NCBI GenBank assembly: GCA_005239935.1 | Contig: SBAZ01000013.1 | Span: 1 to 45,247, forward strand | From: Planctomycetales bacterium | Lineage (GTDB): Bacteria; Omnitrophota; Gorgyraeia; Aquiviventales; Aquiviventaceae | Reading direction: 5' to 3' | DNA: 45,247 nt | Shown: one piece after another, positions 4,304 through 25,706 of the stretch | Numbering within the stretch: the stretch's first letter is position 1 | Layout: each line of letters opens with the position of its first letter | The notes under the pieces: generated by a model | What the model saw: the letters and a program-made list of their open reading frames with translations, nothing else | Database searches by the model: none | What the model was told of the DNA's origin: nothing | Made by a program: the position numbers and the translations under genes

Positions 4304-4307
4304 GACG

Positions 4308-9713: not shown

Positions 9714-10565
9714 CTAGTAGCCCACCGGAATCCGAAACAGCCGCCGGTGCGTCGCCTGCAGTTCGCGGTAGAGCCGCGTGTTCACGAAGATCACGTCCGC
9801 CTCTGGGCTGGCTCCGACCCGCCCGTGGTCGTACACCTGGATGAGCCGGAACCCCTCGCGCTCGATCACCGGCCGCTCGTCCTCGAAGATCGTCTGCCCC
9901 TCATACAGCCGGATGCGTCGGTCGCCGGAGTACACCGTCTCCAGCTGCACGAAGAGGCAGTGCGGCAGATACCGCCCCAGGCTCAGAAAGACGTCGAGGT
10001 CGGTGCCCTGCGCATCAATCTTGAGGAAGTGGATGACCTCCTCCTGCAGCCCATGTACCTCGATCAGGCGCGACAACGGCCACACCGGCACGGTCCGCGT
10101 CCGCACCAGCCCCTCGATCGACCGGTCCACGAACCAGCGCGTGGCGCGCTGGGACGGGTCATGTGTAATGTTCGCTGCGTCCATCCGCAGGAGCGAGTTG
10201 CACGACGGGTCTGTGTACTCGTACAAGGTACGCTCCTGCTCCGGACCCCTGGCCACCGCCGCCTCGACGAAGACCGAGTACGGCTGCACATGCGGGTGCC
10301 GAACCGGGTCGATCCCGATGGACCAGACCGGCGGATACACGCGCTGCGAGAACCGTCGCAGGAACTTGCCGATGAAGCATCCCACGTCAATCAGTACGAT
10401 GCGCGGCGGATCCATTGCGTTCAGGCATCGCGTGATTCCATCCAGGGGATGCTCCGGCTGCCGAAGCAGCGTGTGCTTCGCCGCCAGGACCCACCCGTGG
10501 CGCCGTTTCACGCGGTCCTTCGCGCGCTGCCAGAGGGTCGGTGGCGCGGCCGTGCTGACCGGCAT
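9714..10565 (-). CDS. FkbM-like methyltransferase (second copy, divergent)
   Basis: VLIDVGCFIGKFL...HFLKIDAQGTDLDVF is an FkbM-type pattern. Start at the internal ATG 10565 (MPVSTAAPPTLW), 2 nt after the upstream stop. The track ORF to 10910 adds Gly/Arg-rich sequence that overlaps fcl. Confidence 0.6.
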   Translation of the reverse strand: MPVSTAAPPTLWQRAKDRVKRRHGWVLAAKHTLLRQPEHPLDGITRCLNAMDPPRIVLIDVGCFIGKFLRRFSQRVYPPVWSIGIDPVRHPHVQPYSVFVEAAVARGPEQERTLYEYTDPSCNSLLRMDAANITHDPSQRATRWFVDRSIEGLVRTRTVPVWPLSRLIEVHGLQEEVIHFLKIDAQGTDLDVFLSLGRYLPHCLFVQLETVYSGDRRIRLYEGQTIFEDERPVIEREGFRLIQVYDHGRVGASPEADVIFVNTRLYRELQATHRRLFRIPVGY

Positions 10566-10567
10566 GG

Positions 10568-11521
10568 TCACCGCCCCGCCGTCTGGGTTTGCCGCGCCCG
10601 GTACCAGGCGACGGTCCGGGCTAGGCCCTCGCGCAGCGGCGTCCTGGCCCGCCAGCCCAGCTCGCGCTCGGCCTTGCTGACGTCCATGCAGCGGTGCGCC
10701 TGCCCATCGGGGCGCGCGGCGTCCCACACGATCTGGCCACGAAAGCCAGTCACCTCCCGCAGCCGCTCCACGACCTCGCGGACAGAGGTCTCCACCCCCG
10801 TGGAGAGGTTCACCAGTTCTGGTCGGTCGTACACCTCGGTGGCGCGCAGCAGCCCCTCGGCCACGTCCGCGGCATAGACGAAGTCCCGCGTAGGCGAGCC
10901 GGTGCCCCACACCCCCACCTCCGGCCGCTCCTCGTCCACCGCCTCGACGAATTTTCGTACCAGCGCTGGGACCACATGCGCCCGCTCCAGATCAAAATTG
11001 TCATGCGGCCCATACAGGTTGCCCGGCACGCCGAGCACACTGACGAATCCGTACTGCCGGCCATAGGCCTGGGATTGGATGTGCAGCATCCGCTTCGCGA
11101 GCGAATACGGCGCGCTCTCCGCCTGCGGAAAGCCGTCCCACAGCGAGGTCTCGCGCAGTGGCTGTGGGGCATGCTCCGGGTAGCCGCAGCCCGCGGCCGC
11201 GGCAACAAACTTTCGCGCGCCAGCGCGCCAGGCGTGGTGGAGCATGAGGATGCCCATCATGGCGTTCCGGTAGAAAAAGTCGGCCGGGTAGGCCGCGTTC
11301 GCCCCGATGCCGCCGACGAGTCCTGCGAGATGGATCACCACCTCGGCCGGATGCTCCTGGAACAGCCGCTCCACCTCGGCCTCGTGGGTCAGGTCGTACT
11401 CGCGGCTGCGCACCACGAACACCGAGGTGCACCCCGCGGTCGCCAGCCGCTCCACAACGTGCGAGCCCAGGAATCCGGCCCCGCCGGTCACCAGCACCCG
11501 CCGCCCGGCCCAGAAGCTCAT
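10568..11521 (-). CDS. fcl: GDP-L-fucose synthase family (Fcl/WcaG-like) NADPH-dependent 3,5-epimerase/4-reductase
   Basis: MSFWAGRRVLVTGGAGFLGSH, GANAAYPADFFYRNAMMG, PYSLAKR, NLYGPHDNFDLERAHVVPALVRKF, VWGTGSPTRDF. This is collinear with my recollection of E. coli Fcl. ATGA overlap with the gmhB stop at 11518-11521. Confidence 0.85.
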   Translation of the reverse strand: MSFWAGRRVLVTGGAGFLGSHVVERLATAGCTSVFVVRSREYDLTHEAEVERLFQEHPAEVVIHLAGLVGGIGANAAYPADFFYRNAMMGILMLHHAWRAGARKFVAAAAGCGYPEHAPQPLRETSLWDGFPQAESAPYSLAKRMLHIQSQAYGRQYGFVSVLGVPGNLYGPHDNFDLERAHVVPALVRKFVEAVDEERPEVGVWGTGSPTRDFVYAADVAEGLLRATEVYDRPELVNLSTGVETSVREVVERLREVTGFRGQIVWDAARPDGQAHRCMDVSKAERELGWRARTPLREGLARTVAWYRARQTQTAGR

Positions 11522-12078
11522 CGCACACCGGCTCCGTGGTGCAGCCGGCGGCCCAGCTGGGCCACCGCGTCTGCCAGGTTTGCTGCGACGAGGTCCGGCG
11601 CCACCGCGCCCTCCCCGCACACGCGGTGGCCCTCCCCGGTCCGCACCAGCACCGAGAAGGCGCCGATCTGTCGGCCGAACTCCACGTCGCATGCGTTGTC
11701 GCCGATCACGAGGCTCTCCTCCAGGGCGAAGCCGAACCGCCGCGCAGCCTCGTAGGCCAGCAGCGGCGCCGGCTTGCGGCACGCGCACCCCTCTTCCGGC
11801 AGGTGCGGGCAAAAATAGACAGCTTCCACGGCCACGTGCGCCGCCTCCAGCAGTTGGAGCATCCGCGCGTGGATCTGCGCCAGCTGCTCCAGTGTCACCA
11901 GCCCGCGCCCGATGCCGGACTGGTTGGTGATGACGATCAGGCCGAAGCCGAGGCGCTGCAGCCGGCGCAATGCCGCGCCAGCGCCCGGCAGCAGCGCCAC
12001 ATCCTCGACGCGCGAGAGATAATGGTGTTTCGTCAGAATCGTGCCGTCGCGGTCCAGCAACGCGTAACGGCGGCTCAC
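11518..12078 (-). CDS. gmhB: D-glycero-D-manno-heptose 1,7-bisphosphate phosphatase (HAD-IIIA)
   Basis: LLDRDGT (HAD motif I), VITNQSGIGRG, zinc-site pattern CPHLPEEGCACRKP, GDNACD. GTG start overlaps the upstream stop (GTGA at 12075-12078). Confidence 0.85.
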   Translation of the reverse strand: MSRRYALLDRDGTILTKHHYLSRVEDVALLPGAGAALRRLQRLGFGLIVITNQSGIGRGLVTLEQLAQIHARMLQLLEAAHVAVEAVYFCPHLPEEGCACRKPAPLLAYEAARRFGFALEESLVIGDNACDVEFGRQIGAFSVLVRTGEGHRVCGEGAVAPDLVAANLADAVAQLGRRLHHGAGVR

Positions 12079-12812
12079 GGGCCAGACGCTCCGGTCAGCC
12101 GCTGCACATGCGCCCCGGCCTGCGCGTACGCCTCAGGGACGCCGATGTCGAGTAGCGCCTCTGCCCCGGTCCACGCGGCCAGCCCGCGCCCGACCCATGC
12201 CGGGAACACCTCTCGCTCGAGGGACACCGGCCGGCCGGCGCCGATGGAGGCCAGGAACGCCTGGCTCAGCAGATACACCCCGGCGCTGACCCATCCGGGG
12301 CCGCCGGCGGCCGATTTCTCCACGAATCTCCGCACCATGCCGTTCTCGGCCAGGTCCACCGCCCCGTAGCGGGTCGTGTCCGACTGCCGCGCCAGCGCCA
12401 GCGTGGCCGCCGCGCCGCTCGCGCGATGCCAGGCCAGGAAGGCGCGTAGATCCAGCCGGCACAGCGAATCGCCGTTGAGCGCCAGCACCGGCTCGCTCGT
12501 GAGCAGCGGCCGCGCCAGGCGCAGCGCTCCCGCCGTGCCGAGCGGCGAGAGCTCCTGTGAATACCGCAGGTTCACCGTGCCGTATTTGACGCCCAAGGCC
12601 TGGGTGATCATCGCGCCGCGATCGCCGGTGCACAGCACCGCCTCGGCCACGCCACCGTGCTGCAGCTGTTCGAGAATGTAGGACACCGCTGGCCGGCCGG
12701 CCACCGGCGCCAGCGCCTTCGGCCGGTCCGGGACCGCCGGACGCAGCCGCCGTCCCTGTCCGCCGACCAGCACGGCGGCCACGAGTCCCTCCGGCCCGTC
12801 GGCGGCGGTCAC
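12075..12812 (-). CDS. hddC: Sugar-1-phosphate nucleotidyltransferase, HddC-like (heptose-1-phosphate guanylyltransferase type)
   Basis: The N-terminus AAVLVGGQGRRLRPAVPDRPKALAPVAGRP matches the G-x-G-x-R-L nucleotidyltransferase signature. The gene sits between the hddA-like kinase and gmhB. GTGA overlap at 12809-12812. Confidence 0.65.
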   Translation of the reverse strand: MTAADGPEGLVAAVLVGGQGRRLRPAVPDRPKALAPVAGRPAVSYILEQLQHGGVAEAVLCTGDRGAMITQALGVKYGTVNLRYSQELSPLGTAGALRLARPLLTSEPVLALNGDSLCRLDLRAFLAWHRASGAAATLALARQSDTTRYGAVDLAENGMVRRFVEKSAAGGPGWVSAGVYLLSQAFLASIGAGRPVSLEREVFPAWVGRGLAAWTGAEALLDIGVPEAYAQAGAHVQRLTGASGP

Positions 12813-13825
12813 GGCGTGGTGCTCCGCCAGGTCTGCAGCCCGTGGTCGTCAAACGCGACGTCGGTGAACCGGCCGCCGTGGCGTTCCAGCTCCTGCCGCA
12901 ACGTGTGCTGCCGGTCGGTTTCGCAGAAGAGCAGCAGGTACCCGCCCCCGCCCGCGCCGAGCAGCTTGCCACCGGTGGCGCCGCGGTGCATGGCGAGCTG
13001 GTACAGCTCCTCCGCCTTGGTGCCCTCGGCGACGTGCGGGTTCATGCGCTTCTTGTTCTCATACGCCGCGCTCAGCAGCTCGCCGAAGCGGCGCAGCCGC
13101 CCCTTCAGCAGCGCCTCCTTCGCCTCATAGGCCAGCTGATGCAGCGCCTGCAACCCGGCAATCGTCTCGGCGCGGCCCTCCTTGTAATAGCGCGCCTGCT
13201 TCTGGACCAGCCCCAGGTCCGGCCGCACTTGGCCCAAGTAGCACACCAGGAGGTGCGCCTCGAGGTCGTTCAGAATCCCCTGGGGGATGCGCAGGGGGTT
13301 TACCAGCACCCGGTCCTTGTGGAACTCGATGAGGTTGAACCCGCCGAAGGTCGTCGCATACTGGTCCTGCTTGCCCCCGGCGATGCCCAAGTCCACGCGC
13401 TCGATCACGAAATTAAGCTCCGCCAGCTCGTACGGATCCAGGACGGTGTTCGTGTACTCCGCGAGCGCGCCGATCATGGCGGAGGTCACCGCCGAGGAGC
13501 CACCCAACCCGCTGCCGGGGGGCGCGTCGCAGCGGACATCCAGGTTGAACCCGACCTCGACCCCCATGCGCCGGACCACCGCCTTGGCCAGCTCCAGCAC
13601 ACCATCGCGGGGGGGATCCTCATCGACCGCGTAGGAAACCTCAACGTTGAGATCCAGCGAGCGCATTCGCACGCCGGCGTCGTCACGCGGGTAGAGGCTG
13701 ACGTACGCGTACCGGTTGATCGTGCTCGAGAGCACCGCCCCCCCCTGCTCCTCGTAATAGTGCGGCAGATCCGTCCCGCCCCCGGCAAAGCTGATGCGCA
13801 GCGGTGATTTCGCGCGGATGATCAT
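12809..13825 (-). CDS. hddA: GHMP-family sugar kinase, HddA-like (D-glycero-alpha-D-manno-heptose 7-phosphate kinase type)
   Basis: MIIRAKSPLRISFAGGGTDLPHYY, and the GHMP motif PPGSGLGGSSAVTSA. ATG at 13825 was chosen. An alternative upstream ATG at 13891 would overlap the preceding gene. Confidence 0.7.
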   Translation of the reverse strand: MIIRAKSPLRISFAGGGTDLPHYYEEQGGAVLSSTINRYAYVSLYPRDDAGVRMRSLDLNVEVSYAVDEDPPRDGVLELAKAVVRRMGVEVGFNLDVRCDAPPGSGLGGSSAVTSAMIGALAEYTNTVLDPYELAELNFVIERVDLGIAGGKQDQYATTFGGFNLIEFHKDRVLVNPLRIPQGILNDLEAHLLVCYLGQVRPDLGLVQKQARYYKEGRAETIAGLQALHQLAYEAKEALLKGRLRRFGELLSAAYENKKRMNPHVAEGTKAEELYQLAMHRGATGGKLLGAGGGGYLLLFCETDRQHTLRQELERHGGRFTDVAFDDHGLQTWRSTTP

Positions 13826-13877
13826 CGCCCTGGGCGCGCTCCGGGGCCGCGCGGCCGGTGCGGCGGGCGCGGCCGGC

Positions 13878-14816
13878 TTAGAAAAAGGCATTGCTGTACG
13901 GGTTGAAGACATCGAGCAGCGGGGCCGCGCGGCCAACCTCTACGATGCCGTCATCCAGCGTCCGCGCCACGCGGAAACCCGTGGATCGCAGCTTCGAAAA
14001 ATCCACGACGTAATTGCGCTGGTCTGGATCCCGCCCAGTCTCGGAGTACTCGACCTCGCACGCCACATGCTGCTGGATCCGGCGCGCCAGCTCGCGCTTC
14101 GTGACGTTGAGCGACTCGTCCCCGAGGTTGAACACTTGATCGCGCATCGCTGGGAGGTGCTCGAGCGCGAAGAGAAATGCGCGGCCGAAATCCCCTACGT
14201 GCAGAAAGGCGCGCATGTAATCGGGCTCATACACCACGAGCCGCCGGTCGCGGACCGCCCGGTACACGAAGTCGTTGAGCAGCAGGTCCAACCGCATTAA
14301 CGGCGAGAGCCCGAACGCGGTCGCCGGCCGGAACACGACGGTGTTGCCGCTCGCCAGTAGCAGTTGCTCGGCGGCGAGCTTTGTCCGGCCGTAGAGCGTG
14401 AGAGGCTCCGGCGCCATCGCCTCGGTGCACCGCTCCCTGGCGCCTGCGCCGTAATTGCTGAGGCTCGAGGCAAACACCAGGGGCACTCGCGTCCCGCGGA
14501 TCTGATCCAGCAGCCGGGTCGCCTCGAGGTTCACCTGCTGTGCCAGCCAGGGGTCCTTCTGGCAAGCCGGAAAGCCGACGATGGCCGCGAGATGGATGAT
14601 GGCGTCCATGTCCGCGATGGCCTGGCGCACCGTGGCCTCATCGCGCACGTCACCGCGCATGACTTCCAGGGATGGGTGGCCGCTCATCGGCACCAGTCCG
14701 GCCGCACCCTTGCGCAGGTTGTCCAGCACGCGGACGCGGTAGCCCGCCTCGAGCAGCACGGGCACCATGACGGACCCGATATATCCGGCGCCGCCGGTCA
14801 CAAGGAGACTACGCAT
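13878..14816 (-). CDS. NAD-dependent epimerase/dehydratase (extended SDR)
   Basis: MRSLLVTGGAGYIGSVMVPVLLEAGYRVRVLDNL. The N-terminus is close to the partial SDR at 1..463. 312 aa. Confidence 0.8.
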   Translation of the reverse strand: MRSLLVTGGAGYIGSVMVPVLLEAGYRVRVLDNLRKGAAGLVPMSGHPSLEVMRGDVRDEATVRQAIADMDAIIHLAAIVGFPACQKDPWLAQQVNLEATRLLDQIRGTRVPLVFASSLSNYGAGARERCTEAMAPEPLTLYGRTKLAAEQLLLASGNTVVFRPATAFGLSPLMRLDLLLNDFVYRAVRDRRLVVYEPDYMRAFLHVGDFGRAFLFALEHLPAMRDQVFNLGDESLNVTKRELARRIQQHVACEVEYSETGRDPDQRNYVVDFSKLRSTGFRVARTLDDGIVEVGRAAPLLDVFNPYSNAFF

Positions 14817-15156
14817 GCACCGCCGCTTCGGCGGCCGGCGCCGCCGGCCGTCCGCTCGACTCCGCCACCTTGAGCTGCTCCTCGCAAAAGCGCATCCAGA
14901 GCATCGCCCGGTCCCGCTGCTGTGCGTGAAAGGCGCAGCGTGGGCACCGCAGCACGTCCCAGAGCCGCTGGTACCAGGCGGTCCGCGGTTCGCCGTAGAG
15001 CCAGAGGAAGAGGTGGTTCTCCAAAATCAGCTCGACATCCTCTCGCAGTTCCTTCGTCAGCATCGGGATGGGCCGGGCCTGGCCCTGCTGCAGCGCGTGC
15101 AGCGTGTGCAGACAGCGCTCGGTGATCACGGCCGCGGCGTTGCGGAAGCACCTCAT
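14809..15156 (-). CDS. Hypothetical small protein (115 aa) with a CxxC motif
   Basis: The composition is balanced (W, F, L, E-rich), unlike the shadow ORFs. It contains CPRC. The stop overlaps the downstream SDR start by 8 nt, and its own ATG overlaps the upstream stop (ATGA at 15153-15156). Confidence 0.5.
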   Translation of the reverse strand: MRCFRNAAAVITERCLHTLHALQQGQARPIPMLTKELREDVELILENHLFLWLYGEPRTAWYQRLWDVLRCPRCAFHAQQRDRAMLWMRFCEEQLKVAESSGRPAAPAAEAAVHA

Positions 15157-15335
15157 GCGCGACTCCCCATATAGATCGGCTCGGGCCGGCGCTTGCCGCA
15201 GTACGGGCAGAAACGGAAGCGCGCGATGCGCTCGTCGGTCCAGGCCTCGTCTTCAAAGACCAGAATGTGCCGGCGGTAGAGCTCCGAATACTTCAGGTGC
15301 TGGCAGCCCCGCCGCAGCAGCACAGCCAGTGTCAT
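15153..15335 (-). CDS. Hypothetical small protein (60 aa), zinc-ribbon-like (CxH...CxxC)
   Basis: MTLAVLLRRGCQHLKYSELYRRHILVFEDEAWTDERIARFRFCPYCGKRRPEPIYMGSRA. Third codon positions are mostly G/C. ATGA overlaps occur at both ends (15332-15335 and 15153-15156). Confidence 0.5.
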   Translation of the reverse strand: MTLAVLLRRGCQHLKYSELYRRHILVFEDEAWTDERIARFRFCPYCGKRRPEPIYMGSRA

Positions 15336-16333
15336 CGCGCCGCCCCCGCCGTTGCGGCCGCCCTCCCGGCGCCCGGCCGGGCCAGCGCGGCCGCGAAGTG
15401 GTCTGCAATCCGCCGGCACGAACATGCCAGGACAGGCCGCAAGGCCTCCGGGGTGCACCCGCCCAGATGCGGGGTGATGATAAGATTCGTGTGCGTCCGG
15501 GCGTAGCGCACCAGGGGATGACGGGCGATGTTCGGCTCGCCCTCAAGCACATCCAGCCCGGCCGCCGCGACCTGCCCCCGCTCGAGCGCTGCGAGCAGCG
15601 CTTGCTCGTCGACCACCGCGCCGCGCGAGGTGTTCACCAGGACGGCGCCTGGCTTCAGCCGCCGGAATGCTTCGGGCCCGAGCAGGTGCCGCGTCTGCTC
15701 GTTGAGCGGCGCATGGACCGAGACAACATCTGACGCCTCCAACAGCGGCCAGAGCGCCCTGCGCTCGATGCCCTCCGGCCACGGGCTGACATGCGGGTCA
15801 TAGCCCAGGATGCGCATGCCGAAGGTCTCCGCGTACCGCGCCATCCACTGCCCGAGCCGGCCGCAGCCGATGACCCCCAGGATTTTCCCGCGCAGCATCA
15901 TCCCGGCAAACGCCTGGCGGCGCCATCCTCCGTGGAGCACATCCTCGGTGGCCCCGCGCAACCGACGGGCGCAGGCCAGCAGCAGCAGCCAGGCATGCTC
16001 CGCCGTCGCCGTGATCTCGCGTAGTACCTCCTGCTGGTCCTGCATCGTCAGCAGCGGCACGCCCTGACGGGCCAGTGCGCCGGCATCCACATGATCCGCG
16101 CCGGTGGCGGCGGCGACGAAGAGCTGGAGTCGGCGCGCCAGCGCCAGCCGCCGCGCTCCGAACGGCACCTGCAGCGACGCGTCCAGCACCGCGTCGCAGC
16201 GGCCAAGCCACCGGTCCGCCTCGGCCGCCGTCTCCGCATGCTGCACGGTGCAGCCCAACAGCAGACCACGGACCTCCTCCAGCCGCTCACGCGGCCCCAG
16301 ATAGAGCACCAGGGGCCTGACAGCGCCGTTCAT
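15332..16333 (-). CDS. D-isomer-specific 2-hydroxyacid dehydrogenase family (PGDH/glycerate dehydrogenase-like)
   Basis: GKILGVIGCGRLGQWMARYA (NAD GxGxxG), VNTSRGAVVDEQALLAAL, GLDVLEGEP, ITPHLGG. Confidence 0.85.
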   Translation of the reverse strand: MNGAVRPLVLYLGPRERLEEVRGLLLGCTVQHAETAAEADRWLGRCDAVLDASLQVPFGARRLALARRLQLFVAAATGADHVDAGALARQGVPLLTMQDQQEVLREITATAEHAWLLLLACARRLRGATEDVLHGGWRRQAFAGMMLRGKILGVIGCGRLGQWMARYAETFGMRILGYDPHVSPWPEGIERRALWPLLEASDVVSVHAPLNEQTRHLLGPEAFRRLKPGAVLVNTSRGAVVDEQALLAALERGQVAAAGLDVLEGEPNIARHPLVRYARTHTNLIITPHLGGCTPEALRPVLACSCRRIADHFAAALARPGAGRAAATAGAAR

Positions 16334-16343
16334 GGGTGCCGTG

Positions 16344-17360
16344 TCACCGCTCAGTCAAGAGTTCGTGAAGCGTGGATTCGACCGTTGCCGGGTCCCGCGC
16401 CGAGAAGTACCAGTCGATGGTGCGGTGCAGCCCGTCCCAGAATGTGACCGTAGGCCCCCAGTCCAGTAGCCGCTTCGCGAGCCGGTTGTCCGCCACGCGG
16501 TTCAGCGGGCCGGTGGGCATGTGCGGCGCGGTCTGGATCCTGGCCGTGTGGCCGGTGTACCGGAGAATTTCCTGCGCACATTCGATGACCTTGATGCGCT
16601 CCATGGTGCCGAGGTTGACCGCGGTGCCGTCCTCAATCCGCTCGCCGGCGAGGATCAGGCCGGAGACGATATCGTCCACATGGGTCCAGTTGCGGATCTG
16701 CTCCCCGGTGCCCCAGATGACGTACGGGTCCTCCTTGATGAACGCCCGCGCGATCATCGCGATCACCGCGTGGTTTTCATGGCCCCGCGGCCCGTAGACC
16801 GTGAAGAATCGGCACGAGGCCGACCTGAGCCCGCGTTCCTTGTAGTAGGCCTTCAGCGTCAGTTCGCCCATCAGCTTCGCCCACCCGTAGAGGTTGTCCG
16901 CGTCATATGGCGGGCCGACCATGTCCTCGGTCAGATACAGCTCCTTCGAGGGATCCATCTGGATGTAATTGGGATAGACGCACCCGGACGAGGCGAACAC
17001 CACCTTCTCCACGCCAGCGTCCGCGGCCAGTTTGAAGAGTTGGCCGTCCAGGATGAGGTTCGTGGAGCAGGCGACCTGGTGCAGGTCCACGTAGCCCCGG
17101 CCGCCATGGTCGGCCGCTAGGTGGAAGATGACCTGCATCCGCTCCACGGCCTGCCGCGCGACGGCCGGGTCCAGCAGGTCCGCTTGCCGGAAGTCCACGG
17201 TCTCGCGCTGCAGGTGCTCGCGCAGGTTTTCCAGCTTCCCGCTGGAGAGATTGTCCACGACGCGCACGCGAGCGCCCCGAGCCGCCAGCGCGTCCACCAG
17301 ATGCGACCCGATGAACGACGCCCCGCCGGTCACCAACACTCGCTTGCCGCTCCAGAACAT
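16344..17360 (-). CDS. NAD-dependent epimerase/dehydratase (extended SDR)
   Basis: MFWSGKRVLVTGGASFIGSHLVDAL, YGWAKLMGE (YxxxK). Internal ATG at 17360 is preceded by GGAGAGAGG. The track ORF to 17432 adds Gly/Arg-rich residues. Confidence 0.8.
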   Translation of the reverse strand: MFWSGKRVLVTGGASFIGSHLVDALAARGARVRVVDNLSSGKLENLREHLQRETVDFRQADLLDPAVARQAVERMQVIFHLAADHGGRGYVDLHQVACSTNLILDGQLFKLAADAGVEKVVFASSGCVYPNYIQMDPSKELYLTEDMVGPPYDADNLYGWAKLMGELTLKAYYKERGLRSASCRFFTVYGPRGHENHAVIAMIARAFIKEDPYVIWGTGEQIRNWTHVDDIVSGLILAGERIEDGTAVNLGTMERIKVIECAQEILRYTGHTARIQTAPHMPTGPLNRVADNRLAKRLLDWGPTVTFWDGLHRTIDWYFSARDPATVESTLHELLTER

Positions 17361-17374
17361 CCTCTCTCCTTCGG

Positions 17375-19192
17375 TTAGTGCGCGCCGTGCCGGACAACCG
17401 CCACCAGGCGCCGCCCGCCTGCCACCGGCCACCGTTCAACCGTGCCGAATCCCGTCAAGAACTCCTCGCCGGCGCGGCCCACTTCAGACTCCGCCGTCAC
17501 GACGACATCCACCGGCCGCGTCCCTGGCGCGTAGATCGCCTGCCAGTCCAGCCGCATGTACCCCTCATCCGGATAGAGTGCCGCGATCTCCTTGGTGAAC
17601 CGGTAGCCGGTATAGAAACTTCCGGTCGCCAGCGCAGCCGACGGTTGCCGGACTGCCCCGTTGATCTGATACGCCACCACCGGCGAGCGTCCCATCCGGT
17701 GCGCCAGGACGCCGAGCCGGCGGTCGATCACCTGCTTTTCCGCCCATCCCTCGGCCACGAGCCGGTGATGTGCCTTCACATCCCGGACCGCCGCCCCGGC
17801 CAGCAACGCCAGCACTGCCACCGCGCCCGCGGCCGCGCTGCGGCGGATCCAGCCGGGCGGGCTGACCCAGGCCCGGGTCAGCCAGGCCAGCCCGGCGGCT
17901 GTCCCGACCGCGACCGGTGTCAGAAACCGCACCGCAGCGCCGCTGGCCGCATAGGAGACACCGTCCACCGCGTGATTCCTCAGCCCAGCCACCAACCCGA
18001 ACGTCAGACTCAGCAGCGCGATCACCCCGAGCCCGACCTCACCAGGATCCGGCCCGCGCGCTCTGAGCACCCAGGCCAGCCGGGCCGCGACCAGCCCGGT
18101 AATGAGCAGAACGGCCGCGGTCCAGCCTGGCACATCCCGGATCAGCTGGGCCAGCTCGGCAGCGATGACGCCGGCGCCCAACCGCGCCTCCGGTTGCCAG
18201 AACGCGCCGACGGTGGCATCCACCACATGGTGCAGCATTTCCCCGTATCGGTGGGCGGCGATGAACGTGGAAAGCAGCCAGCCTGCGGCCGCGCCCCCTG
18301 CCGCCTCAAGCGCAAACCGGAACATACCTTCCAGCCGCCGCCACGGCGCGGACCCCGGCCCACACAGGTGGCTCGCCAGACCCAACGCCCAGGCCAGCAG
18401 CAGCACCGGCTGGCCGATGTGGAGCACCGCCGCCAGCCGCGGCGAACTGCGCCAGAAATCTGTTGCCGCGATCAGGAGCGCAACCCCCACGACACCGGCC
18501 AGCCAGGCCGCCAGTATCGGCCAGGTGAGACGGCACCGCGCCGGCTGCCGCGCGGCCCACAGCCACCCCATGGCCGCGCAGCCGGCCAGCACTGCTGCCG
18601 CGACCGGCAGATAGACGATCTTGACGGCGCACGCCAGGCCGGCCCAGGCCCCGGCGGCGAAGAGCTGCCGGGTCTGCGGCGGCTGTCCCGGGCGACAGGC
18701 GTCGAGCAGGCTCGCCCAAAGCAGCAACCCGACTGCCACCAGGAACATCTCAGAACTCCAGTAGGTGGCGTACATCAGCGATGACGCATGGAGAAACGGC
18801 ACGCCAAGGATCGCGGCCCGCAGCAGCCACGGCAGTTGGGTGGGCAGCGCCGCGGCGAAACGCCACAGGGCCGCGACGGTGGCTGCGAGCCCGATCGCGT
18901 ACGCCACGGCAAGAAAACGCGCCAGCGCGTCGAGACGCGTGCCCAACAACCGCGTCAGTGCGGCGCCGAGCACATACACCGGAGTTCCCGGGTGGTACGC
19001 CAGCTCCGGGGGCTGCCCGCGCGCCACCTGGAAGCTGTTGAACGCGAAATCCATCTCCACATCAGTGGACATGATCCAGTACGGCCGCGGTATCACCAGC
19101 ACTTTGTAGGCCCAGACCGATGCCAGCAGCAGGGCGATCACCGCGAACGCCGAAACCCGTGGCCGCATGGCGTGCGCGGAGGCCCCGGTCAT
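17375..19192 (-). CDS. Polytopic membrane protein, probable GT-C-fold (GT39/GT83, PMT_2/ArnT-like) glycosyltransferase
   Basis: More than 10 hydrophobic segments. The first loop, STDVEMDFAFNSFQVARGQPPELAYHPGTPVYVLGA, resembles the acidic loop plus HPPL motif of ArnT/PMT_2 enzymes. About 130 aa at the C-terminus look soluble. ATGA overlap with the upstream stop at 19189-19192. Confidence 0.5.
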   Translation of the reverse strand: MTGASAHAMRPRVSAFAVIALLLASVWAYKVLVIPRPYWIMSTDVEMDFAFNSFQVARGQPPELAYHPGTPVYVLGAALTRLLGTRLDALARFLAVAYAIGLAATVAALWRFAAALPTQLPWLLRAAILGVPFLHASSLMYATYWSSEMFLVAVGLLLWASLLDACRPGQPPQTRQLFAAGAWAGLACAVKIVYLPVAAAVLAGCAAMGWLWAARQPARCRLTWPILAAWLAGVVGVALLIAATDFWRSSPRLAAVLHIGQPVLLLAWALGLASHLCGPGSAPWRRLEGMFRFALEAAGGAAAGWLLSTFIAAHRYGEMLHHVVDATVGAFWQPEARLGAGVIAAELAQLIRDVPGWTAAVLLITGLVAARLAWVLRARGPDPGEVGLGVIALLSLTFGLVAGLRNHAVDGVSYAASGAAVRFLTPVAVGTAAGLAWLTRAWVSPPGWIRRSAAAGAVAVLALLAGAAVRDVKAHHRLVAEGWAEKQVIDRRLGVLAHRMGRSPVVAYQINGAVRQPSAALATGSFYTGYRFTKEIAALYPDEGYMRLDWQAIYAPGTRPVDVVVTAESEVGRAGEEFLTGFGTVERWPVAGGRRLVAVVRHGAH

Positions 19193-21108
19193 CCGCCGCC
19201 CCGTCCCACCGCGGCGAGGGCGATGGAGCCCTCGGGTGCCTGCGCGGCCGGCTGCAGGTGCGCTTCACACCAGGCCTGGAGGACATACACCGCCCAGACC
19301 TGCGACCACAGGGCGCGCCGGACCAGATACCGTGCCCACAGCGCGGTCACCCCAGCGCGCTCGAGCAACCCATGGAGCGGGCCAGTCGCGAAGCGCTCCG
19401 CCAGCTCATCGCGCCATGGACCGCGCATCCACTCATCCAGCGGGAAGACAAACCCCTGCTTGCGCCGATCCAGCACGTGCGCAGGGACCCAGGGTCGCAC
19501 CGCGTCGATCAGCAGCGACTTCGGGCGGCCACCGAAGACGAGGCTGGCTGGCAGGCCGGCAACCCATTCCGCCAGCCGGTGGTCCAGCAGCGGCGCCCGC
19601 ACCTCCAGCCCGTGCGCCATGCTCATGGCATCCGCGTCCCGCAGGAGCTGGTTCTGCAGGTAGCACCGGCACTCGAGCCAGCTGACCTGGCGCGCGGGCG
19701 CGGCCAGCGGCATGTCGGGGCAGGTGGCCTGACCGAGTATGTCGTCCGGCGCGGCCTCGCGCACGTGCCGGTCGAGTACGGCCTCGAGTTCCTCATCGAG
19801 CAGGAGCCCCTTGACCGCCAGGTAGCCGGACTCGGTCGAGGGCGCGCGGCGCAGGAAGACGCGCACTTTGCGCAGCCGGCTCTCGGTCGCGCCGCGGAGC
19901 ACGCGCGCCATCGCCCGGCGGCAGAGCGGCCCGAGCGCGCGGCCGGCGCGGCGCAGCCGCGGCACGCGCCGAAAGGACGTGTAGCCGCCAAAGAGCTCAT
20001 CGCCGCCAAGCCCGGAGAGCGCGACGATCGTGCCGGAGGCGCGCGTCAGACGCGAGACCAGGTACGTGTTCAGGCCGTCCACGCTGGGCTGATCCATCGC
20101 CTGGATGATCTGGGGGAGCGCCTCGCGGACACCGGCTGCGGTCACCCGGCAGCTCATGTGGCGTGTGTCCAGGTGGCGGGAGACGGCCTCGGCGAACGGC
20201 CCCTCGTCGTACAGCGCCTCCTCGAACGTCAGTGAGAAGGTGCGCAGGTCGACGACGCCGGCCTGCCGCATGAGCGCCACCACGGCGCTGGAATCCGTGC
20301 CTCCCGAGAGAAAGGCGCCCAACGGCACGTCACTGATCAGGCACGCGCGGACCGCTTCGATGAGCCGCGCGCGCAGGTCCTCGAGCGCCTCGGCCCGCCG
20401 CACCGGCCGCTCCGGTGGGTAGGACACCTCCCAGTACCGCGTGACGGCGAAGGTGCCAGGCTTGATGACCGCGTAGCAGCCCGGCTCAAGGGACTGCACG
20501 CCACGGAGGATCGTGCGTGGCGCCGGCACCGAGCCCAACGCCAGATACGCCTGCACGGCCGCTGGGTCCGGCTCAGGAGCCGCCACGCCCGCAGCGAGCA
20601 AGGCCCGGACCTCCGAGGCGAACGCCACCGCCTCGCCGACTCGCCGCAGATACAGCGGCTTTTCGCCGAAGCGGTCGCGCGCCAGCAGCAACTGCTGCCG
20701 GGTCGCGTCCCAGACCGCGAACGCGAACATGCCCTGGAACTGCCGCACGCAGTCCGGACCGAACACCTCATAGGCGTGCACGATCACCTCGGTGTCGGTG
20801 CGGGATCGGAACCGGTGACCCCGTGCGATGAGCTGCGCCCGGAGTGCCTCGAAGTTATAGAGTTCCCCGTTGTGCACCGCCCAGACGGTGCCATCCTCGT
20901 TGCCCATGGGCTGGTGGCCGGCGTCCGACAGATCCAGGATCGCCAGACGGCGGCTGCCCAGCGCGACGGTGCCCTGGTCCCTGGCCGAAAACACCGCCAC
21001 ACCCTCGTCATCCGGCCCACGGTGGGCCTGCGCCGCGATGAGGCGGCGGCAGAGCGCCTCGGCTTCTCCCACCGCCGCCGGAATCAGCACGCCGGCAATG
21101 CCGCACAC
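19189..21108 (-). CDS. Asparagine synthase (glutamine-hydrolysing) family amidotransferase (AsnB/WbpS-like)
   Basis: GTG at 21108 places Cys at position 2 (CGIAGVL...), as an Ntn amidotransferase requires. RGPDDEG, HNGELYNF, PP-loop SGGTDSS. The start lies 2 nt after the wzm stop. Confidence 0.85.
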   Translation of the reverse strand: MCGIAGVLIPAAVGEAEALCRRLIAAQAHRGPDDEGVAVFSARDQGTVALGSRRLAILDLSDAGHQPMGNEDGTVWAVHNGELYNFEALRAQLIARGHRFRSRTDTEVIVHAYEVFGPDCVRQFQGMFAFAVWDATRQQLLLARDRFGEKPLYLRRVGEAVAFASEVRALLAAGVAAPEPDPAAVQAYLALGSVPAPRTILRGVQSLEPGCYAVIKPGTFAVTRYWEVSYPPERPVRRAEALEDLRARLIEAVRACLISDVPLGAFLSGGTDSSAVVALMRQAGVVDLRTFSLTFEEALYDEGPFAEAVSRHLDTRHMSCRVTAAGVREALPQIIQAMDQPSVDGLNTYLVSRLTRASGTIVALSGLGGDELFGGYTSFRRVPRLRRAGRALGPLCRRAMARVLRGATESRLRKVRVFLRRAPSTESGYLAVKGLLLDEELEAVLDRHVREAAPDDILGQATCPDMPLAAPARQVSWLECRCYLQNQLLRDADAMSMAHGLEVRAPLLDHRLAEWVAGLPASLVFGGRPKSLLIDAVRPWVPAHVLDRRKQGFVFPLDEWMRGPWRDELAERFATGPLHGLLERAGVTALWARYLVRRALWSQVWAVYVLQAWCEAHLQPAAQAPEGSIALAAVGRGGG

Positions 21109-21110
21109 CG

Positions 21111-21992
21111 TCACCGCCCTCCGGAGCCGAGAATGTCGGCGAATACCCGCTCGCGCCGCCGGAAATACCAGGCGCCGCCGAGGAACAGCACCCCGGAGGC
21201 CCCGGCCGAGACCGCGAGCACTGGGCCCGGGGCGGTGCCGACACCGAAGAGCGCCCACCGGAAACCCTCCACGACGCCAACCATCGGGTTGAGTGCGTAG
21301 AGCGGCCGCCATGCCAGAGGCACCATACTGCTCGGATAGACGACTGGCGTGACGAACAACCACAGCTGGGTCAGAAACGGCAGCACGTACCGGACATCAC
21401 GGTACTCGAGGTTCAGCGCCGACAGCCAGAAGCCCAGGCCGAGCGACGTCATCAGCATCAGGAGGACGAACGACGGCAACCAGACAATGCCGAGGGTGGG
21501 CGCCAGGCCGTAGTACACCATGAGGCCCACGAGCAGGATCGAGGCGATGGCAAAATCCACCAGTGCGGCGAGCACCGTGGAAAGCGGCACGAGCAGCCGC
21601 GGAAAATAGACGCGGGTGATCAGGCGTTGGTCCGCCAGCAGGCTGCCGGCTGATTCGGACAGCGCCCGGGAGAAGATCTGCCACGGTAACAGGCCAGCGT
21701 ATGCGAACACGGGATACGGGATCCCCTCGGACGGCAACTGCGCCAACTGGCCGAAAAAGAGCGTGAACACGAGCATCATGGACAGCGGCTGCGCCACGGC
21801 CCAGGCGATGCCGATGGCTGTCTGCTTATAGCGCACCTTCAAGTCCCGCCAGACGAGGAAATAGGCGAGTTCGCGGTACCGCCACAGGTCCCGCAGTCCC
21901 AGGCTGAAGCCCCGGGTTGCACGGATGTCGATCACCTCTGGCGGCAGCCTGGGAGCCCATGCGTTGGCCTCGGACATCGTGGCTGTTGTCAT
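21111..21992 (-). CDS. wzm: ABC-2 type polysaccharide exporter permease (Wzm/KpsM/TagG-like)
   Basis: [35 protein letters not shown] is the ABC-2 signature region, followed by six hydrophobic segments. ATG at 21992 forms an ATGA overlap with the uxs stop. Confidence 0.85.
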
Positions 21993-22939
21993 GACTTCGC
22001 GAGTGCCTGCGCGTGCTGGCGAAACCATCCGATGGTCGCCGCCAGGCCCTCCCGAACCGGCACGCGCGGCCGCCACCCCGTTAACCGGGTAATCGTGGCC
22101 AGGTCCGGCCGGCGCTGCTTCGGGTCATCCGTCGGCAGGGGGCGGAATTCGATCCGGCTGCCAGCGCCGTTGACGAGCTCCAACACCAATTTGGCCAGTT
22201 CCAAAATGGTCCATTCCTCAGGATTCCCCACGTTCACCGGGTCGGGATGTGCCACGTCCATAAGCCCGCGGATTCCCTCCACTAGGTCATCGACATAGCA
22301 GAGGCTGCGTGTCTGCCCGCCGTCGCCGTACACGGTCAGGGCCTCGCCGCGCAGGGCCTGGCTGATGAAGTTCGGGATGGCGCGGCCATCGTTCAGGCGC
22401 ATCCGCGGCCCGTAGGTGTTGAAAATGCGGACGATGCGGGTATCGATCCCGTGTTCCCGGTGGTAGGCCATCGTCAGCGCCTCCGCGAACCGCTTGGTCT
22501 CGTCATAGACGCCGCGCGGCCCCACGGGGTTGACCCGGCCCCAGTACGTCTCCGGCTGGGGATGGACTTCCGGGTCCCCATAGACCTCCGACGTCGAGGC
22601 CAGCATGAACCTGGCTCCCTTCGCCTTGGCCATGCCCAGCATATTCAGCGTGCCGAGGGAGCCGACCTTCAGCGTCGGAATGGGATACTTGAGGTAGTCC
22701 GGGGGGCTGGCTGGTGAAGCAAAATGGAGGATATAGTCCACGGGTGCCGGCAGGTCAAGCGGCTTGCTGATGTCGTGCTGGAGGAAGCGGAACCGGCGCC
22801 CGGCGCGCAAGTGGGCCACGTTGCTCTGCGTGCCGGTGATGAAGTTGTCCACGCACACGATGTCGTGGTCGTCGCGCAGCAACCGCTCGCAGAGATGCGA
22901 CCCGATGAACCCTGCCCCGCCGGTGATGAGGACCTGCAT
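21989..22939 (-). CDS. uxs: UDP-glucuronate decarboxylase (UDP-xylose synthase)
   Basis: [88 protein letters not shown]. All are UXS hallmark blocks. Confidence 0.9.
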
Positions 22940-23220
22940 CAGCTGAACTCGTCCGTCGGGGTGGTGCCGACTTGTGACACGTCCTGCAGCTTGAGCACCG
23001 CCTGCCGCACGAGCCGAATGCCGCGGTGCTTATTGGACGCACGCCGGATGAACCCCTTGTGCTCGAGCGCGTTGAGCCGGTCGACCGCGGACTTGTAGGA
23101 GAAGATCTGGCAGGCGTCTTGGATTTCACGGATGAGGGGAGCGCGGCGGTGCTCGCCGATGTAGCGCTGGATGAAGTCCAGGACCGCTTGCTGCTTGTGG
23201 GTGAGCGCGAACAGTGCCAG
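22939..23220 (-). CDS. LexA N-terminal DNA-binding-domain-only winged-helix protein (no S24 peptidase domain); putative non-canonical CTG start
   Basis: Hand translation of the open frame 22942..23244 gives (L)[92 protein letters not shown]. It is collinear with the LexA wHTH (LTxRQQxVxDxI...EI...L.AL..KG.I....RGIRL). There is no in-frame ATG/GTG/TTG near the N-terminus. A GGAG sits 6 nt before the CTG at 23220. The stop overlaps the uxs ATG by 1 nt (TGATG). Confidence 0.6.
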
Positions 23221-23292
23221 ACCGGGCTCCGGAAGTTCGGGGACTCAAAAGATTACAATAAAACGGTGAGAAAACTTACTATATTAGCGCGT

Positions 23293-23321
23293 AGCATAAC
23301 ACGCGACCCCTGTGGGGTCAA
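23293..23321 (-). promoter_or_regulatory. Sigma70-like promoter candidate for the downstream operon (LexA-like ORF through to at least position 1)
   Basis: The minus strand reads TTGACC-17 nt-TATGCT (-35 at 23321..23316, -10 at 23298..23293). It lies in the only AT-rich gap (about 23240-23300) between 34 kb and 1. Confidence 0.5.
23305..23319 (-). promoter_or_regulatory. Perfect palindrome GACCCC-nnn-GGGGTC overlapping the -35/spacer (operator candidate)
   Basis: The plus strand reads gacccc tgt ggggtc at 23305-23319. It lies 4 nt downstream of the lhgO-like stop and has no U-tract after it. Confidence 0.45.
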
Positions 23322-23322
23322 C

Positions 23323-24579
23323 TCATTGTCGCGTGAAGACAACAGCCCCCTGCTCGTGGCGAGGATGCACCGCCCCGACGGCCGCCAGGCGGTCGGCCAC
23401 GTGCCGGGCGATTGCCAGGCAGGCTGTCGCGGCGGGTGAGGGGGCATTCCGCACGAAGACTGCCCCGGGCTGTTCGACCAGGTCGAAGTCGTCGAGCAAC
23501 CGTCCGTCCGCCCCCACCGCCTGCGCCCGCACCCCGCTGCCCCCAGGCCGCAGATCGCTTGCGCGGATCTCGGGGACCAGCCGCTGGACCGACCGCACCA
23601 ACGCGCGCCGGCTCCAGGATCGGTAGGCTTCGCTCAGTCCTGCGCGCCAGAAGCGCCGCGTCATCCGCCAAAAGCCGCCAAACCGCGCGAGCTCACTGAG
23701 GTCCTGCCAATCCCAGTCGGTGCGCGTGTAGCCCTCCCGCTTGAGTGCGAGGACCGCGTTGGGCCCGACGTGCACCGTTCCGTCCACCGTGCGCGTCACG
23801 TGCACGCCGAGAAATGGCAGTTGGGGATCCGGCACCGGGTAGATCATCCCGCGCACGAGCGCCCGACGCTCCGGCACCAGGTCGTAGTAGTCGCCGCGGA
23901 AGGGCACGATGCGCACGTCGTCCTCCCCGCCGGCGGTGCGCGCCAGGCGGTCGGCAAAGAGCCCGGCGCAGCTCACCAGGCTGCGCGTGCCGAGCGCTCC
24001 ACGGTCAGTCTCCACGACCCACCCATCGGCCTGGGGGGCGACACGCCGGACGTTCGTGGACGTGCGGATCTCGGCGCCGCGGTGCATGGCGCCGTCCCCG
24101 AGTGCGCGCGCGACGCGGCCGAAGTCCACCACGGCCGCACCCGGCACGTGGAGGGCGTGCAGGCCAGCCGCATGCGGCTCCACATCCCGCAGGCGGTCCG
24201 GGCCGATCAGCGCCAGGTCCGGCACCCCGTTCGCCTGCCCGCGCTCGTACAGGGCGCGCAGCCGCGGCACCTCCTCAGGTGTGGTGGCCACGATGACCTT
24301 CCCCACGACCGCGGTCGGAATGCCGTGTTCCTGGCAGAACTCCAGGAGACGCCGGCGGCCCTCCAGGCACAGTGCGGCCTTGAGCGAGCCCGGGCGGTAG
24401 TAGATGCCGGAGTGGACGACGCCGCTGTTGTGCGTGGTCTGGTGCGCGCCGAGGGAGGACTCTTTCTCGAGGACGACGACCCGGCACCCGGGCCGGCGCG
24501 CCGTGAGTTCGGCCGCCACCGCCAGACCGACGATGCCGCCGCCGATCACCACGACGTCCGCCGCGGGATGGTCCGGCAT
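23323..24579 (-). CDS. lhgO: FAD-dependent L-2-hydroxyglutarate oxidase/dehydrogenase family (LhgO-like)
   Basis: MPDHPAADVVVIGGGIVGLAVAAEL (FAD GxGxxG), HQTTHNSGVVHSGIYYRPGSLKA (LhgO hallmark), VRNAPSPAATA. Internal ATG at 24579, 14 nt after the upstream stop. The 127-aa extension in the track ORF is Arg/Ala-rich. Confidence 0.8.
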   Translation of the reverse strand: MPDHPAADVVVIGGGIVGLAVAAELTARRPGCRVVVLEKESSLGAHQTTHNSGVVHSGIYYRPGSLKAALCLEGRRRLLEFCQEHGIPTAVVGKVIVATTPEEVPRLRALYERGQANGVPDLALIGPDRLRDVEPHAAGLHALHVPGAAVVDFGRVARALGDGAMHRGAEIRTSTNVRRVAPQADGWVVETDRGALGTRSLVSCAGLFADRLARTAGGEDDVRIVPFRGDYYDLVPERRALVRGMIYPVPDPQLPFLGVHVTRTVDGTVHVGPNAVLALKREGYTRTDWDWQDLSELARFGGFWRMTRRFWRAGLSEAYRSWSRRALVRSVQRLVPEIRASDLRPGGSGVRAQAVGADGRLLDDFDLVEQPGAVFVRNAPSPAATACLAIARHVADRLAAVGAVHPRHEQGAVVFTRQ

Positions 24580-24593
24580 GGGCGTGACGACCC

Positions 24594-25706
24594 TCACCTC
24601 GCGCTCAGCGCGCGCTGCACCGTCGCGACGACGCGGGTGATCGTTCCGCGCGCCATCTCGGGATACAGTGGCAGCGACAGTACCTGCCGCGCCGCGGCCT
24701 CGGCGGCCGGAAGCCGCTCGTGCCGCCGCCTCCGGAGCGCGGGCTGCGCCGGGACCGTCGAGGGGTAGGCGACTTGGCAGGCGATGCCGGCCGCGGCGAG
24801 TGCGCGCTGCACGCGGTCGCGGCGCGGCGTGCGGATCGTGTAGAGCGCATACGCGTGTCGGGTTCCTGGCCGCTCCTGCGGCAGTGCGTGGCGCGGCAGC
24901 CCTGTGCGCTGCAACAGCGATGTGTACGCGGCCGCGTGGCGGCGCCGGGCCGCATTCCATCCCCGCAGATGGTGCAGCTTCACCCGGAGAATCGCTGCTT
25001 GCAGTTCATCCAACCGGCTGTTGGTCCCGACGGCCAGGTGCCGGTACCGCGCGTGGCTGCCATGCGCCCGGAGGAGCCGGACCTGTTCGGCAAGCCTGGC
25101 GTCGCTCGTGACGACCATCCCCGCATCCCCATAGGCTCCGAGGTTCTTGCTTGGGTAGAAGCTCAGACAACCCGCCGCGCCGAAACTCCCGACCGGCCGC
25201 CCACCCTGCGCCGCGCCCAGTGCCTGCGCGCAGTCCTCAACCAGCACCAGCCCGCGGGCGCGCGCCAGAGCGCCCAGCGCGCGCATGTCGCAGGGATGCC
25301 CGTACAGGTGTACTGGGAGGAGCGCGCGGGTCCGGCGCGTCAGCCGGCGGCGGACGTCCTGTGGATCGAGGGTGTAGGTGGCCGCGTCGATGTCCGCGAA
25401 GACCGGGGTTGCGCCGACCGCCAGGATCGCTTCAGCCGTCGCAAAGAAGGTAAAGCCGCTCGTGATGACCTCGTCGCCCGAGCTGATGCCGGCGGCGCGC
25501 AACGCGAGGATCAGCGCATCGGTGCCCGAGGCCACCGCGACGGCGTAGCACGTCCCGCAGAAGGCCGCCACCTCTCGTTCGAGCGCCTCGACTTCCGGGC
25601 CAAGGATGAACTGCCCGCTGGCCAGCACGCGGCGGATGGCCGCGTCAACAGCTGGCTTCAGCGAGCGGTACTGCGCCTGCAGGTCTACAAGCGGGATCGT
25701 CGGCAT
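24594..25706 (-). CDS. DegT/DnrJ/EryC1/StrS-family PLP-dependent sugar aminotransferase
   Basis: MPTIPLVDLQAQYRSLKPAVDAAIRRVLASGQFILGPEVEALEREVAAFCG..., ASGTDALILALRA, FYPSKNLGAYGDAG (catalytic Lys). Internal ATG at 25706. Confidence 0.85.
   Translation of the reverse strand: MPTIPLVDLQAQYRSLKPAVDAAIRRVLASGQFILGPEVEALEREVAAFCGTCYAVAVASGTDALILALRAAGISSGDEVITSGFTFFATAEAILAVGATPVFADIDAATYTLDPQDVRRRLTRRTRALLPVHLYGHPCDMRALGALARARGLVLVEDCAQALGAAQGGRPVGSFGAAGCLSFYPSKNLGAYGDAGMVVTSDARLAEQVRLLRAHGSHARYRHLAVGTNSRLDELQAAILRVKLHHLRGWNAARRRHAAAYTSLLQRTGLPRHALPQERPGTRHAYALYTIRTPRRDRVQRALAAAGIACQVAYPSTVPAQPALRRRRHERLPAAEAAARQVLSLPLYPEMARGTITRVVATVQRALSAR

Follow-up and report, generated by a model that had tools for sequence, protein, structure and literature searches.

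Gene organization at the locus

The stretch of DNA analysed here, referred to as the window, comprises 45,247 nucleotides (nt) of contig SBAZ01000013.1 (assembly GCA_005239935.1), deposited as Planctomycetales bacterium and placed by GTDB in the Omnitrophota. On the minus strand, directly upstream of a gene for a UDP-glucuronate decarboxylase-like protein (uxs), an open reading frame (ORF) was identified which lacks an ATG, GTG or TTG start codon and encodes a stand-alone winged-helix domain of the LexA type. Comparison with its orthologues revealed this ORF to be a member of a conserved family. Its translation is predicted to start from a CTG codon, and a role as regulator of a surface-glycan operon appears likely. 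The features of the gene and of the adjacent uxs are the following:

23245..23247, minus strand: in-frame TGA closing the frame on its 5' side
23227..23230, minus strand: Shine-Dalgarno sequence GGAG, 6 nt 5' of the CTG
23218..23220, minus strand: predicted initiation codon CTG, aligned with the ATG, GTG and TTG starts of the orthologues
22939..23220, minus strand: coding sequence of the 93-amino-acid stand-alone LexA-type winged-helix protein, including its stop TGA (22941-22939)
23020..23208, minus strand: LexA_DNA_bind (PF01726) domain, based on a profile match and an AlphaFold2 model
21989..22939, minus strand: uxs, UDP-glucuronate decarboxylase-like, 316 amino acids, based on Epimerase and GDP_Man_Dehyd matches

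The original prediction had reported an open frame between the TGA at 23247-23245 and the TGA at 22941-22939. This was confirmed, with 101 sense codons (23244..22942) free of stops and frameshifts. The frame was thus given correctly, but its coding part is 23220..22939, while 23244..23221 forms an in-frame untranslated leader. Ahead of the winged-helix domain no ATG, GTG or TTG is present; the sole near-cognate codons are the CTGs at 23220-23218 and 23214-23212, and ATH codons are absent from the leader frame. As had been proposed, the ORF is missing from the gene track because gene callers accept only ATG, GTG and TTG. It is likewise skipped in the gene calls of two Logan assemblies from different runs, which are 100% identical to window positions 23571-21652 (1.9 kb) and 23344-21805 (1.5 kb), the CTG included. 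An assembly error at the CTG was excluded, since these two independent assemblies agree. The locus is contained in the two sequencing runs SRR6261452 and SRR6943130. The assembly containing the window has a size of 1.63 Mb, a G+C content of 68% and a completeness of 92%.

The overlap of the stop codon with the ATG of uxs, noted originally as TGATG, is present in the window as described. The uxs product matched human UXS1 structures with an E value of 3e-114. The genes 3' of uxs are all located on the same strand and code for Wzm, Wzt, an AsnB-like amidotransferase and several SDR epimerases and dehydratases; the cluster also contains genes for glycosyltransferases, FkbM-type methyltransferases and heptose-type enzymes.

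A conserved protein family in the Omnitrophota

In a search of 5.8 billion proteins, 95 homologues of 77-145 amino acids were found which contain PF01726 alone, 94 of them with 57-81% identity to the window protein. Scans of genomes and metagenome contigs yielded 80 distinct orthologues of 66-130 amino acids, essentially all from Candidatus Omnitrophota, the related loci belonging to metagenome-assembled genomes of this phylum mostly from groundwater. Among the GTDB species representatives, all 29 short-type matches were Omnitrophota-like records. The non-Omnitrophota matches examined were all long (open frames of 138-455 amino acids), and a GxSM motif of the S24 type was present in all but four. 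When 1.84 billion cluster representatives were searched with a profile, 26 short clusters with E < 1e-20 were obtained, with remoter S24-less LexA-type proteins, some of them containing two tandem winged helices, below them. The literature search yielded no publication dealing with LexA in Omnitrophota or with the short LexA-type family.

An alignment of 24 sequences contains 22 invariant columns, every one of which is present in the window protein: K9, Q10, E23, P28, I30, R31, E32, C37, I39, S41, Y42, K43, S44, D47, R48, L49, A51, R60, K64, H65, R66 and I68. The invariant motifs of the family include SYKS-x-x-DRL and NKHRGI. Across 78 orthologues, 29 columns are conserved at 90% or above. Cys37 (at about 23110-23112 of the window), a single cysteine at the turn of the helix-turn-helix, occurs in 78 of 78 orthologues and is not found in canonical LexA; its function could be redox-related or structural.

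The C-termini of many orthologues carry a short motif such as PSLEGAGEGVAV, PVVQGAV or SLEGAI, which can be written as [PS][LV][EQ]G[AV] plus a hydrophobic residue. In the alignment, this motif is located near the cleavage-site and linker region of LexA, and it recalls the ClpX-recognised tail which is exposed on the N-terminal fragment of LexA. The window protein, which ends with ...TPTDEFS (22942-22965), does not have this motif.

The original prediction had called a stand-alone LexA-type domain at a glycan cluster no textbook arrangement. The arrangement is not an oddity of a single genome but that of a conserved family of the Omnitrophota. LexA-type proteins without the S24 domain, with single or tandem winged helices, are common in metagenomes.

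The predicted CTG start codon

The conserved Leu-Thr in helix 1 served as anchor for the orthologues, and the start column was read in 78 of them. A canonical codon, located 4-7 codons upstream of the anchor, is found there in 47 (18 ATG, 18 GTG, 11 TTG). In the other 31, about 40%, the column contains CTG, which is thereby the most frequent start codon of the family; about 75% of the members start with a codon other than ATG. No ATG, GTG or TTG occurs anywhere in the open frame of 17 of the 31 CTG orthologues, and for 9 further ones a canonical codon is present only 10-45 codons upstream, within unconserved sequence. The frame is closed by a stop 3-19 codons before the CTG in 28 of these 31 loci. 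The in-frame stops found upstream in the orthologues are a mixture of TGA, TAA and TAG, so that stop-codon recoding was rejected.

Of the 31 loci, 21 have the sequence GGAG exactly 6 nt ahead of the CTG; the same distance is the most frequent one among members starting with GTG or TTG. Close relatives differ in the start codon: proteins L109 and L110, with CTG, and L115, with GTG, are 88-89% identical. The original prediction had considered the CTGs at 23220 and 23214 as the only plausible initiators, the first being preceded by GGAG and a 6-nt spacer. Both points were confirmed, and the alignment decides in favour of 23220: the first CTG falls into the start column of the family and the second opposite a conserved Lys codon, which places the start at 23220 and gives a protein of 93 amino acids. 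The comparative evidence for CTG 23220 with its GGAG 6 nt upstream as the predicted start codon is strong.

It was considered whether the gene is real but is translated from a different site, either the second CTG (23214) or another near-cognate codon, or by a mechanism not involving CUG. The two in-frame CTGs are only 2 codons apart, four orthologues have a GTG or TTG 1-3 codons after the CTG which carries the Shine-Dalgarno sequence, so that either codon is possible there, and CUG initiation complexes were reported to be unstable in E. coli (PMC11497404). However, the first CTG has both the position in the start column and the GGAG at the usual spacing. In addition, L011 and L160 contain an in-frame stop 3 codons upstream and the CTG as the sole near-cognate codon, at a position where their relatives L007 and L120 have TTG, and the leader frame of the window offers no ATH codon as an alternative. 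A start at another position is therefore regarded as improbable, and initiation at CTG 23220 is the assignment used below.

Another possibility is that the ORF is a decaying LexA-like remnant, which is not expressed and whose start was mutated from ATG to CTG. In favour of a remnant, the canonical start is absent, gene callers skip the ORF, and the window protein is devoid of the C-terminal tail motif described above. However, the CTG group comprises 31 distinct orthologues with a pairwise identity down to 51%, all with intact frames, in which the family-conserved residues are retained at 87-100%, a level equal to or above that of members with canonical starts. Since these residues were kept in spite of this divergence, the CTG members are not pseudogenes. 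Conservation also extends to the distance of the Shine-Dalgarno sequence and to the overlap with uxs, and the window frame itself is undisturbed. The frameshifts or stops in orthologous regions which the original prediction had named as signs of decay were thus not found, and a remnant is very improbable. On these comparative grounds, the 93-amino-acid ORF is established as a real and intact gene of a conserved, uncharacterised Omnitrophota family.

Several deposited proteins of the family (P0071, P0090, P0093 and P0094, also L015/L038) begin at an internal Met in or just before helix 1 (MFDYIQ..., MLEYIQ..., MLEFIW..., MKQRSVL...). At the P0094 locus, a CTG start is present upstream of the annotated internal Met. 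This suggests that gene callers systematically truncate or miss the family.

Domain composition and relation to LexA

The assignment of the ORF to the LexA N-terminal winged helix, made originally from the letters, was verified by a profile search: PF01726 matched frame residues 13-75 with an E value of 4e-16 and 59 bits (cut-off 23.7). The LexA equivalog TIGR00498 gave 61.4 bits, below its cut-off of 110.95, and only model positions 3-85 of 203 were matched. The ORF therefore has no S24 part, as had been claimed. In a Pfam scan, the only other hit was a sub-threshold match to DsrC (E 0.23); the NGN and KOW domains of antiterminators of the RfaH, UpxY or LoaP type were not found. The Ala-Gly autocleavage site is absent in the alignment from the window protein, the end of which falls into the linker region.

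An AlphaFold2 model of the protein shows a winged helix with three helices, with a predicted local distance difference test score of 77.5 overall and 88-92 in the core. Towards the C-terminus, a helix of lower confidence (residues 72-82) is followed by a disordered tail. The best Foldseek matches of the model were N-terminal domains from LexA and LexA-DNA complexes (3jsp, 3jso, 3k2z and 1lea), with a root-mean-square deviation of 1.5 Å and 38-39% identity. A search of the PDB with the sequence profile of the family likewise returned LexA N-terminal domains.

The genome contains three PF01726 loci, namely the winged-helix ORF and two full-length LexA paralogues (G000:C123:18037-18759 and G000:C107:395-1051, both on the minus strand), which have GDSM...K motifs and ATG starts. 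With two ordinary LexA genes in the genome, the winged-helix ORF represents a third paralogue, of a truncated type, and is distinct from the SOS repressor. Its recognition helix differs from those of both full-length proteins, which also differ from each other, and its neighbourhood consists of glycan genes and not of SOS genes.

Genomic context of the orthologues

For 76 loci, the gene following the winged-helix gene could be evaluated. In 63 of these it is uxs, whose start codon is ATG in 53, and in 48 of the 63 the stop and start codons overlap (ATGA in 31, TGATG or TAATG in 17). In the other 13 loci, the recognisable downstream ORFs are different glycan genes, coding for DegT-, RmlA-, RmlC-, Wzm-, Wzx- or CapD-like proteins. 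Upstream, 27 of 67 orthologous loci have an lhgO-like gene directly before the winged-helix gene and in the same orientation, and the order lhgO, promoter, winged-helix gene, uxs is conserved.

The closest relative in the genome collection, L025 (CAZKXY010000017.1), encodes a protein with 73% identity and a CTG start. Here, the first long ORF scanned downstream is not uxs. The leader of L025 is longer and GC-rich, and a long inverted repeat (ACCCCGCCCCACGG...CCGTGGGGCGGGGT) replaces the AT-rich boxes described in the following section.

The promoter and the leader region

The region between the winged-helix gene and the preceding gene contains the following features:

23323..24600, minus strand: lhgO-like gene (L-2-hydroxyglutarate oxidase), upstream, based on NF008726; the start is approximate, the longest ORF extending to 24960
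23316..23321, minus strand: -35 hexamer TTGACC, beginning 1 nt past the stop codon of the lhgO-like gene
23293..23298, minus strand: -10 hexamer TATGCT, with TG upstream and a 17-nt spacer
23271..23282, minus strand: AT-rich box 1, ATAGTAAGTTTT, similar to an extended -10 element
23248..23259, minus strand: AT-rich box 2, ATTGTAATCTTT, 23 nt downstream of box 1

The lhgO-like product scored 533.8 bits with NF008726, compared to a cut-off of 299. A scan of 20 kb (3401-23400) detected a single sigma-70-like promoter, TTGACC-17-TATGCT (23321-23293). The ORF is located behind it, in agreement with its earlier description as the first cistron. Terminator-like sites in the same 20 kb were no commoner than in shuffled sequence. 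The motif cTTGAC occurs in 45 of 72 non-redundant upstream regions of orthologues.

A strict form of the AT-rich box, ATDGTAANNTTT, has 2 matches in the whole 1.63-Mb assembly, both at the winged-helix locus. At least one box occurs in 37 of 54 promoters of high-GC orthologues, compared to 0 of 1404 control windows, and in all 7 orthologue promoters with two boxes the spacing is 23-24 nt. However, a scan covering 301 genomes of the phylum showed that TTGAC-N13-15-ATRGTAAYNTTT also precedes genes for MerR-like, ArnT-like and LacI-type proteins, rimP, a tRNA, ATP sulfurylase, APS kinase, bioY and hrcA. The occurrence before unrelated genes identifies the box as the extended -10 consensus (TRTGn-TAAYAT) of the phylum, so that it is best read, from sequence data, as a generic Omnitrophota element. 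The promoter of the winged-helix gene is nearly the only one in GC-rich genomes that still fits the consensus, which points to a strong, constrained promoter. The two boxes at the window locus could function as tandem promoters or cause sigma-dependent pausing.

The apparent consensus promoter of the Omnitrophota, TTGAC-N14-(T)ATRGTAAYATTT, with an extended -10 of the TRTGn type, gave 26 hits in the 301 genomes (loci L175-L200), compared to 5 control hits. In one further locus (L172, G039:C25:62000-64000), ORF 520-2001 codes for a homologue of the capsule-assembly protein Wzi (PF14052, E 2.5e-61) and lies behind the same consensus promoter (G039:C25:62457-62487). This wzi gene has a similar initial transcribed sequence, TTCTCACC, and genome G039 also contains the winged-helix gene.

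For the leader of the window gene no meaningful Rfam hit was obtained, the predicted fold is not significant (z of -0.42), and the leader sequences vary among orthologues. On the basis of the Rfam search and the fold, a structured RNA leader or known riboswitch was rejected.

Proposed role of the winged-helix protein

In the model proposed here, transcription would start from the near-consensus promoter with the extended -10, and the winged-helix gene is predicted to be the first cistron of the transcript. Translation would begin at CUG 23220, set by the GGAG 6 nt upstream, in a family whose start column toggles between ATG, GTG, TTG and CTG. The stop codon overlapping the uxs start would couple the ORF to uxs and thereby to the ABC-transporter-type (Wzm/Wzt) glycan cluster which follows. 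The protein is presumed to be a sequence-specific DNA-binding regulator of the cluster or of its own promoter. As it does not have the S24 cleavage domain, it would be outside the RecA-stimulated autocleavage control. The weak start codon would keep the regulator scarce despite the strong promoter, which it would share with highly expressed genes for sugar-nucleotide enzymes. As a whole, this account of a functional 93-amino-acid family member, started with CUG as the first cistron, made scarce by its weak start and acting as a DNA-binding regulator tied to the glycan cluster, is considered likely.

It might also be that the protein is made but is not a dedicated glycan regulator. In this case, the ORF could mainly be a translational-coupling leader that determines the expression level of uxs; alternatively, the protein could have other DNA targets or work together with the full-length LexA proteins. 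The frequent overlap with uxs would fit a coupling leader, no specific operator was found, and the two-box arrangement, although unique in the genome, is explicable by tandem promoter elements. However, the winged helix is fully conserved, with its 22 invariant columns in 24 sequences and 29 columns at 90% or above in 78, which is unexpected for a mere coupling leader. Its recognition helix is unlike that of either full-length LexA paralogue, and the gene still fronts glycan genes where uxs has been replaced. Such a role apart from glycan regulation is rather unlikely, though less so than the two alternatives discussed for the start codon, and a regulator tied to the cluster is preferred.

A number of observations weigh against the proposed model. 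The description of the protein as a dedicated regulator of the cluster, taken over from the original prediction, is an inference, and a specific operator was not identified. The box ATRGTAAnnTTT, present in two copies 23 nt apart, was considered as such an operator and rejected, since the same element fronts unrelated genes across the phylum. The palindrome GACCCC-ACA-GGGGTC, to which the original prediction had pointed at the -35 region, is not conserved, and the arm lengths of inverted repeats in the orthologues match those in shuffled sequences. Also in general, no family-specific operator was found in the upstream regions of the orthologues. No dimerisation element was predicted with confidence in the model of the window protein, and for E. 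coli LexA, one N-terminal domain on its own has only a weak affinity for DNA.

The same applies to the start codon, as the evidence for translation of the ORF is comparative throughout. Initiation from CUG is inefficient in E. coli, and bacteria do not commonly use this codon as a start (PMC11497404). In a crude genome-wide count, CTG preceded by a Shine-Dalgarno sequence was not enriched, reaching 0.33x the expectation from codon usage, the same value as for CTC; a genome-wide use of CTG for initiation was therefore rejected. The anticodon arm of the initiator tRNA of relatives is canonical (GGGCUCAUAACCC), and thus nothing obvious favours efficient CUG initiation. ARAGORN identified 38 tRNAs in the assembly, and neither of the two with a CAU anticodon has the GGG/CCC anticodon stem of the initiator type. 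For this reason, the initiator gene is probably located in the missing 8% of the genome. An altered initiator tRNA was rejected as an explanation, given the canonical arm in relatives, the initiator gene itself not having been found in the 92%-complete assembly.

A more far-reaching version of the model may be put forward tentatively, and it is doubtful in this full form. Here, the Omnitrophota would have adopted the N-terminal domain of LexA as a dedicated regulator of surface glycans, encoded by the first cistron and throttled by genuine CUG initiation, with CUG being preferred in the high-GC clade. The level of the regulator, set by the strength of the start codon and perhaps by the activity of initiation factor IF3, would tune the coupled uxs and glycan operon. 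If this were true, CUG would be a usable and selectable start codon in Omnitrophota, preferred by the high-GC clade of this family.

The family described here exposes a conserved group of proteins in a major uncultured phylum which is systematically missed or truncated by gene callers limited to ATG, GTG and TTG, several database entries starting at an internal Met. For functional CUG initiation in bacteria, it is a comparative case of unusual clarity, since ATG, GTG, TTG and CTG occupy one column with identical Shine-Dalgarno spacing. The idea that the strength of a start codon is an evolved dial for expression is directly testable in this family. In addition, the protein is the first candidate regulator for surface-glycan clusters of the Omnitrophota, a phylum whose cell-envelope biology is almost unknown, and it points to a route for the reuse of the LexA DNA-binding domain outside the SOS response.

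Comparison to known systems

With LexA (TIGR00498; 1lea, 3jso/3jsp, 3k2z), the window protein shares the winged-helix fold and the sequence family PF01726. It ends at the segment of the LexA linker and cleavage site, and its 93 amino acids are similar in size to the N-terminal cleavage product of LexA (about 84 amino acids). In contrast to LexA, it has no S24 Ser/Lys peptidase domain and lacks the dimerisation provided by the C-terminal domain of LexA. It also has a recognition-helix signature of its own, C-x-I-x-SYKS-x-x-DRL with the invariant Cys, and its gene is tied to glycan genes instead of SOS genes.

Other S24-less LexA-type proteins from metagenomes, among them tandem two-domain forms (P0115, P0117, P0121, P0122 and P0126), likewise have LexA_DNA_bind without the peptidase domain. 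However, they are less closely related (E 1e-12 to 1e-23) and do not carry the SYKS/NKHRGI signature. The tandem forms contain two winged helices per chain and can be described as single-chain dimers; some have an N-terminal segment resembling a zinc ribbon (CxxC...CxxC).

Locus-specific regulators at the head of polysaccharide operons are known from the capsule loci of Bacteroides (UpxY/UpxZ) and from enterobacteria (RfaH with the ops/JUMPstart leader). The winged-helix loci resemble these systems in that a regulator gene or element heads a long surface-glycan operon on a single strand. However, UpxY/UpxZ and RfaH are antiterminators of the NusG/KOW type, and their folds are unrelated to the LexA-type winged helix. 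In contrast to the RfaH system, a conserved leader RNA or an ops-like element was not found at the winged-helix loci.

Weak or non-canonical start codons are known for bacterial genes like infC (AUU) and lacI (GUG), and rare CUG starts are permitted by translation table 11. The winged-helix gene would resemble genes of the infC and lacI type, as a regulatory protein would be held at a low level by the combination of a poor start codon with a good Shine-Dalgarno sequence.

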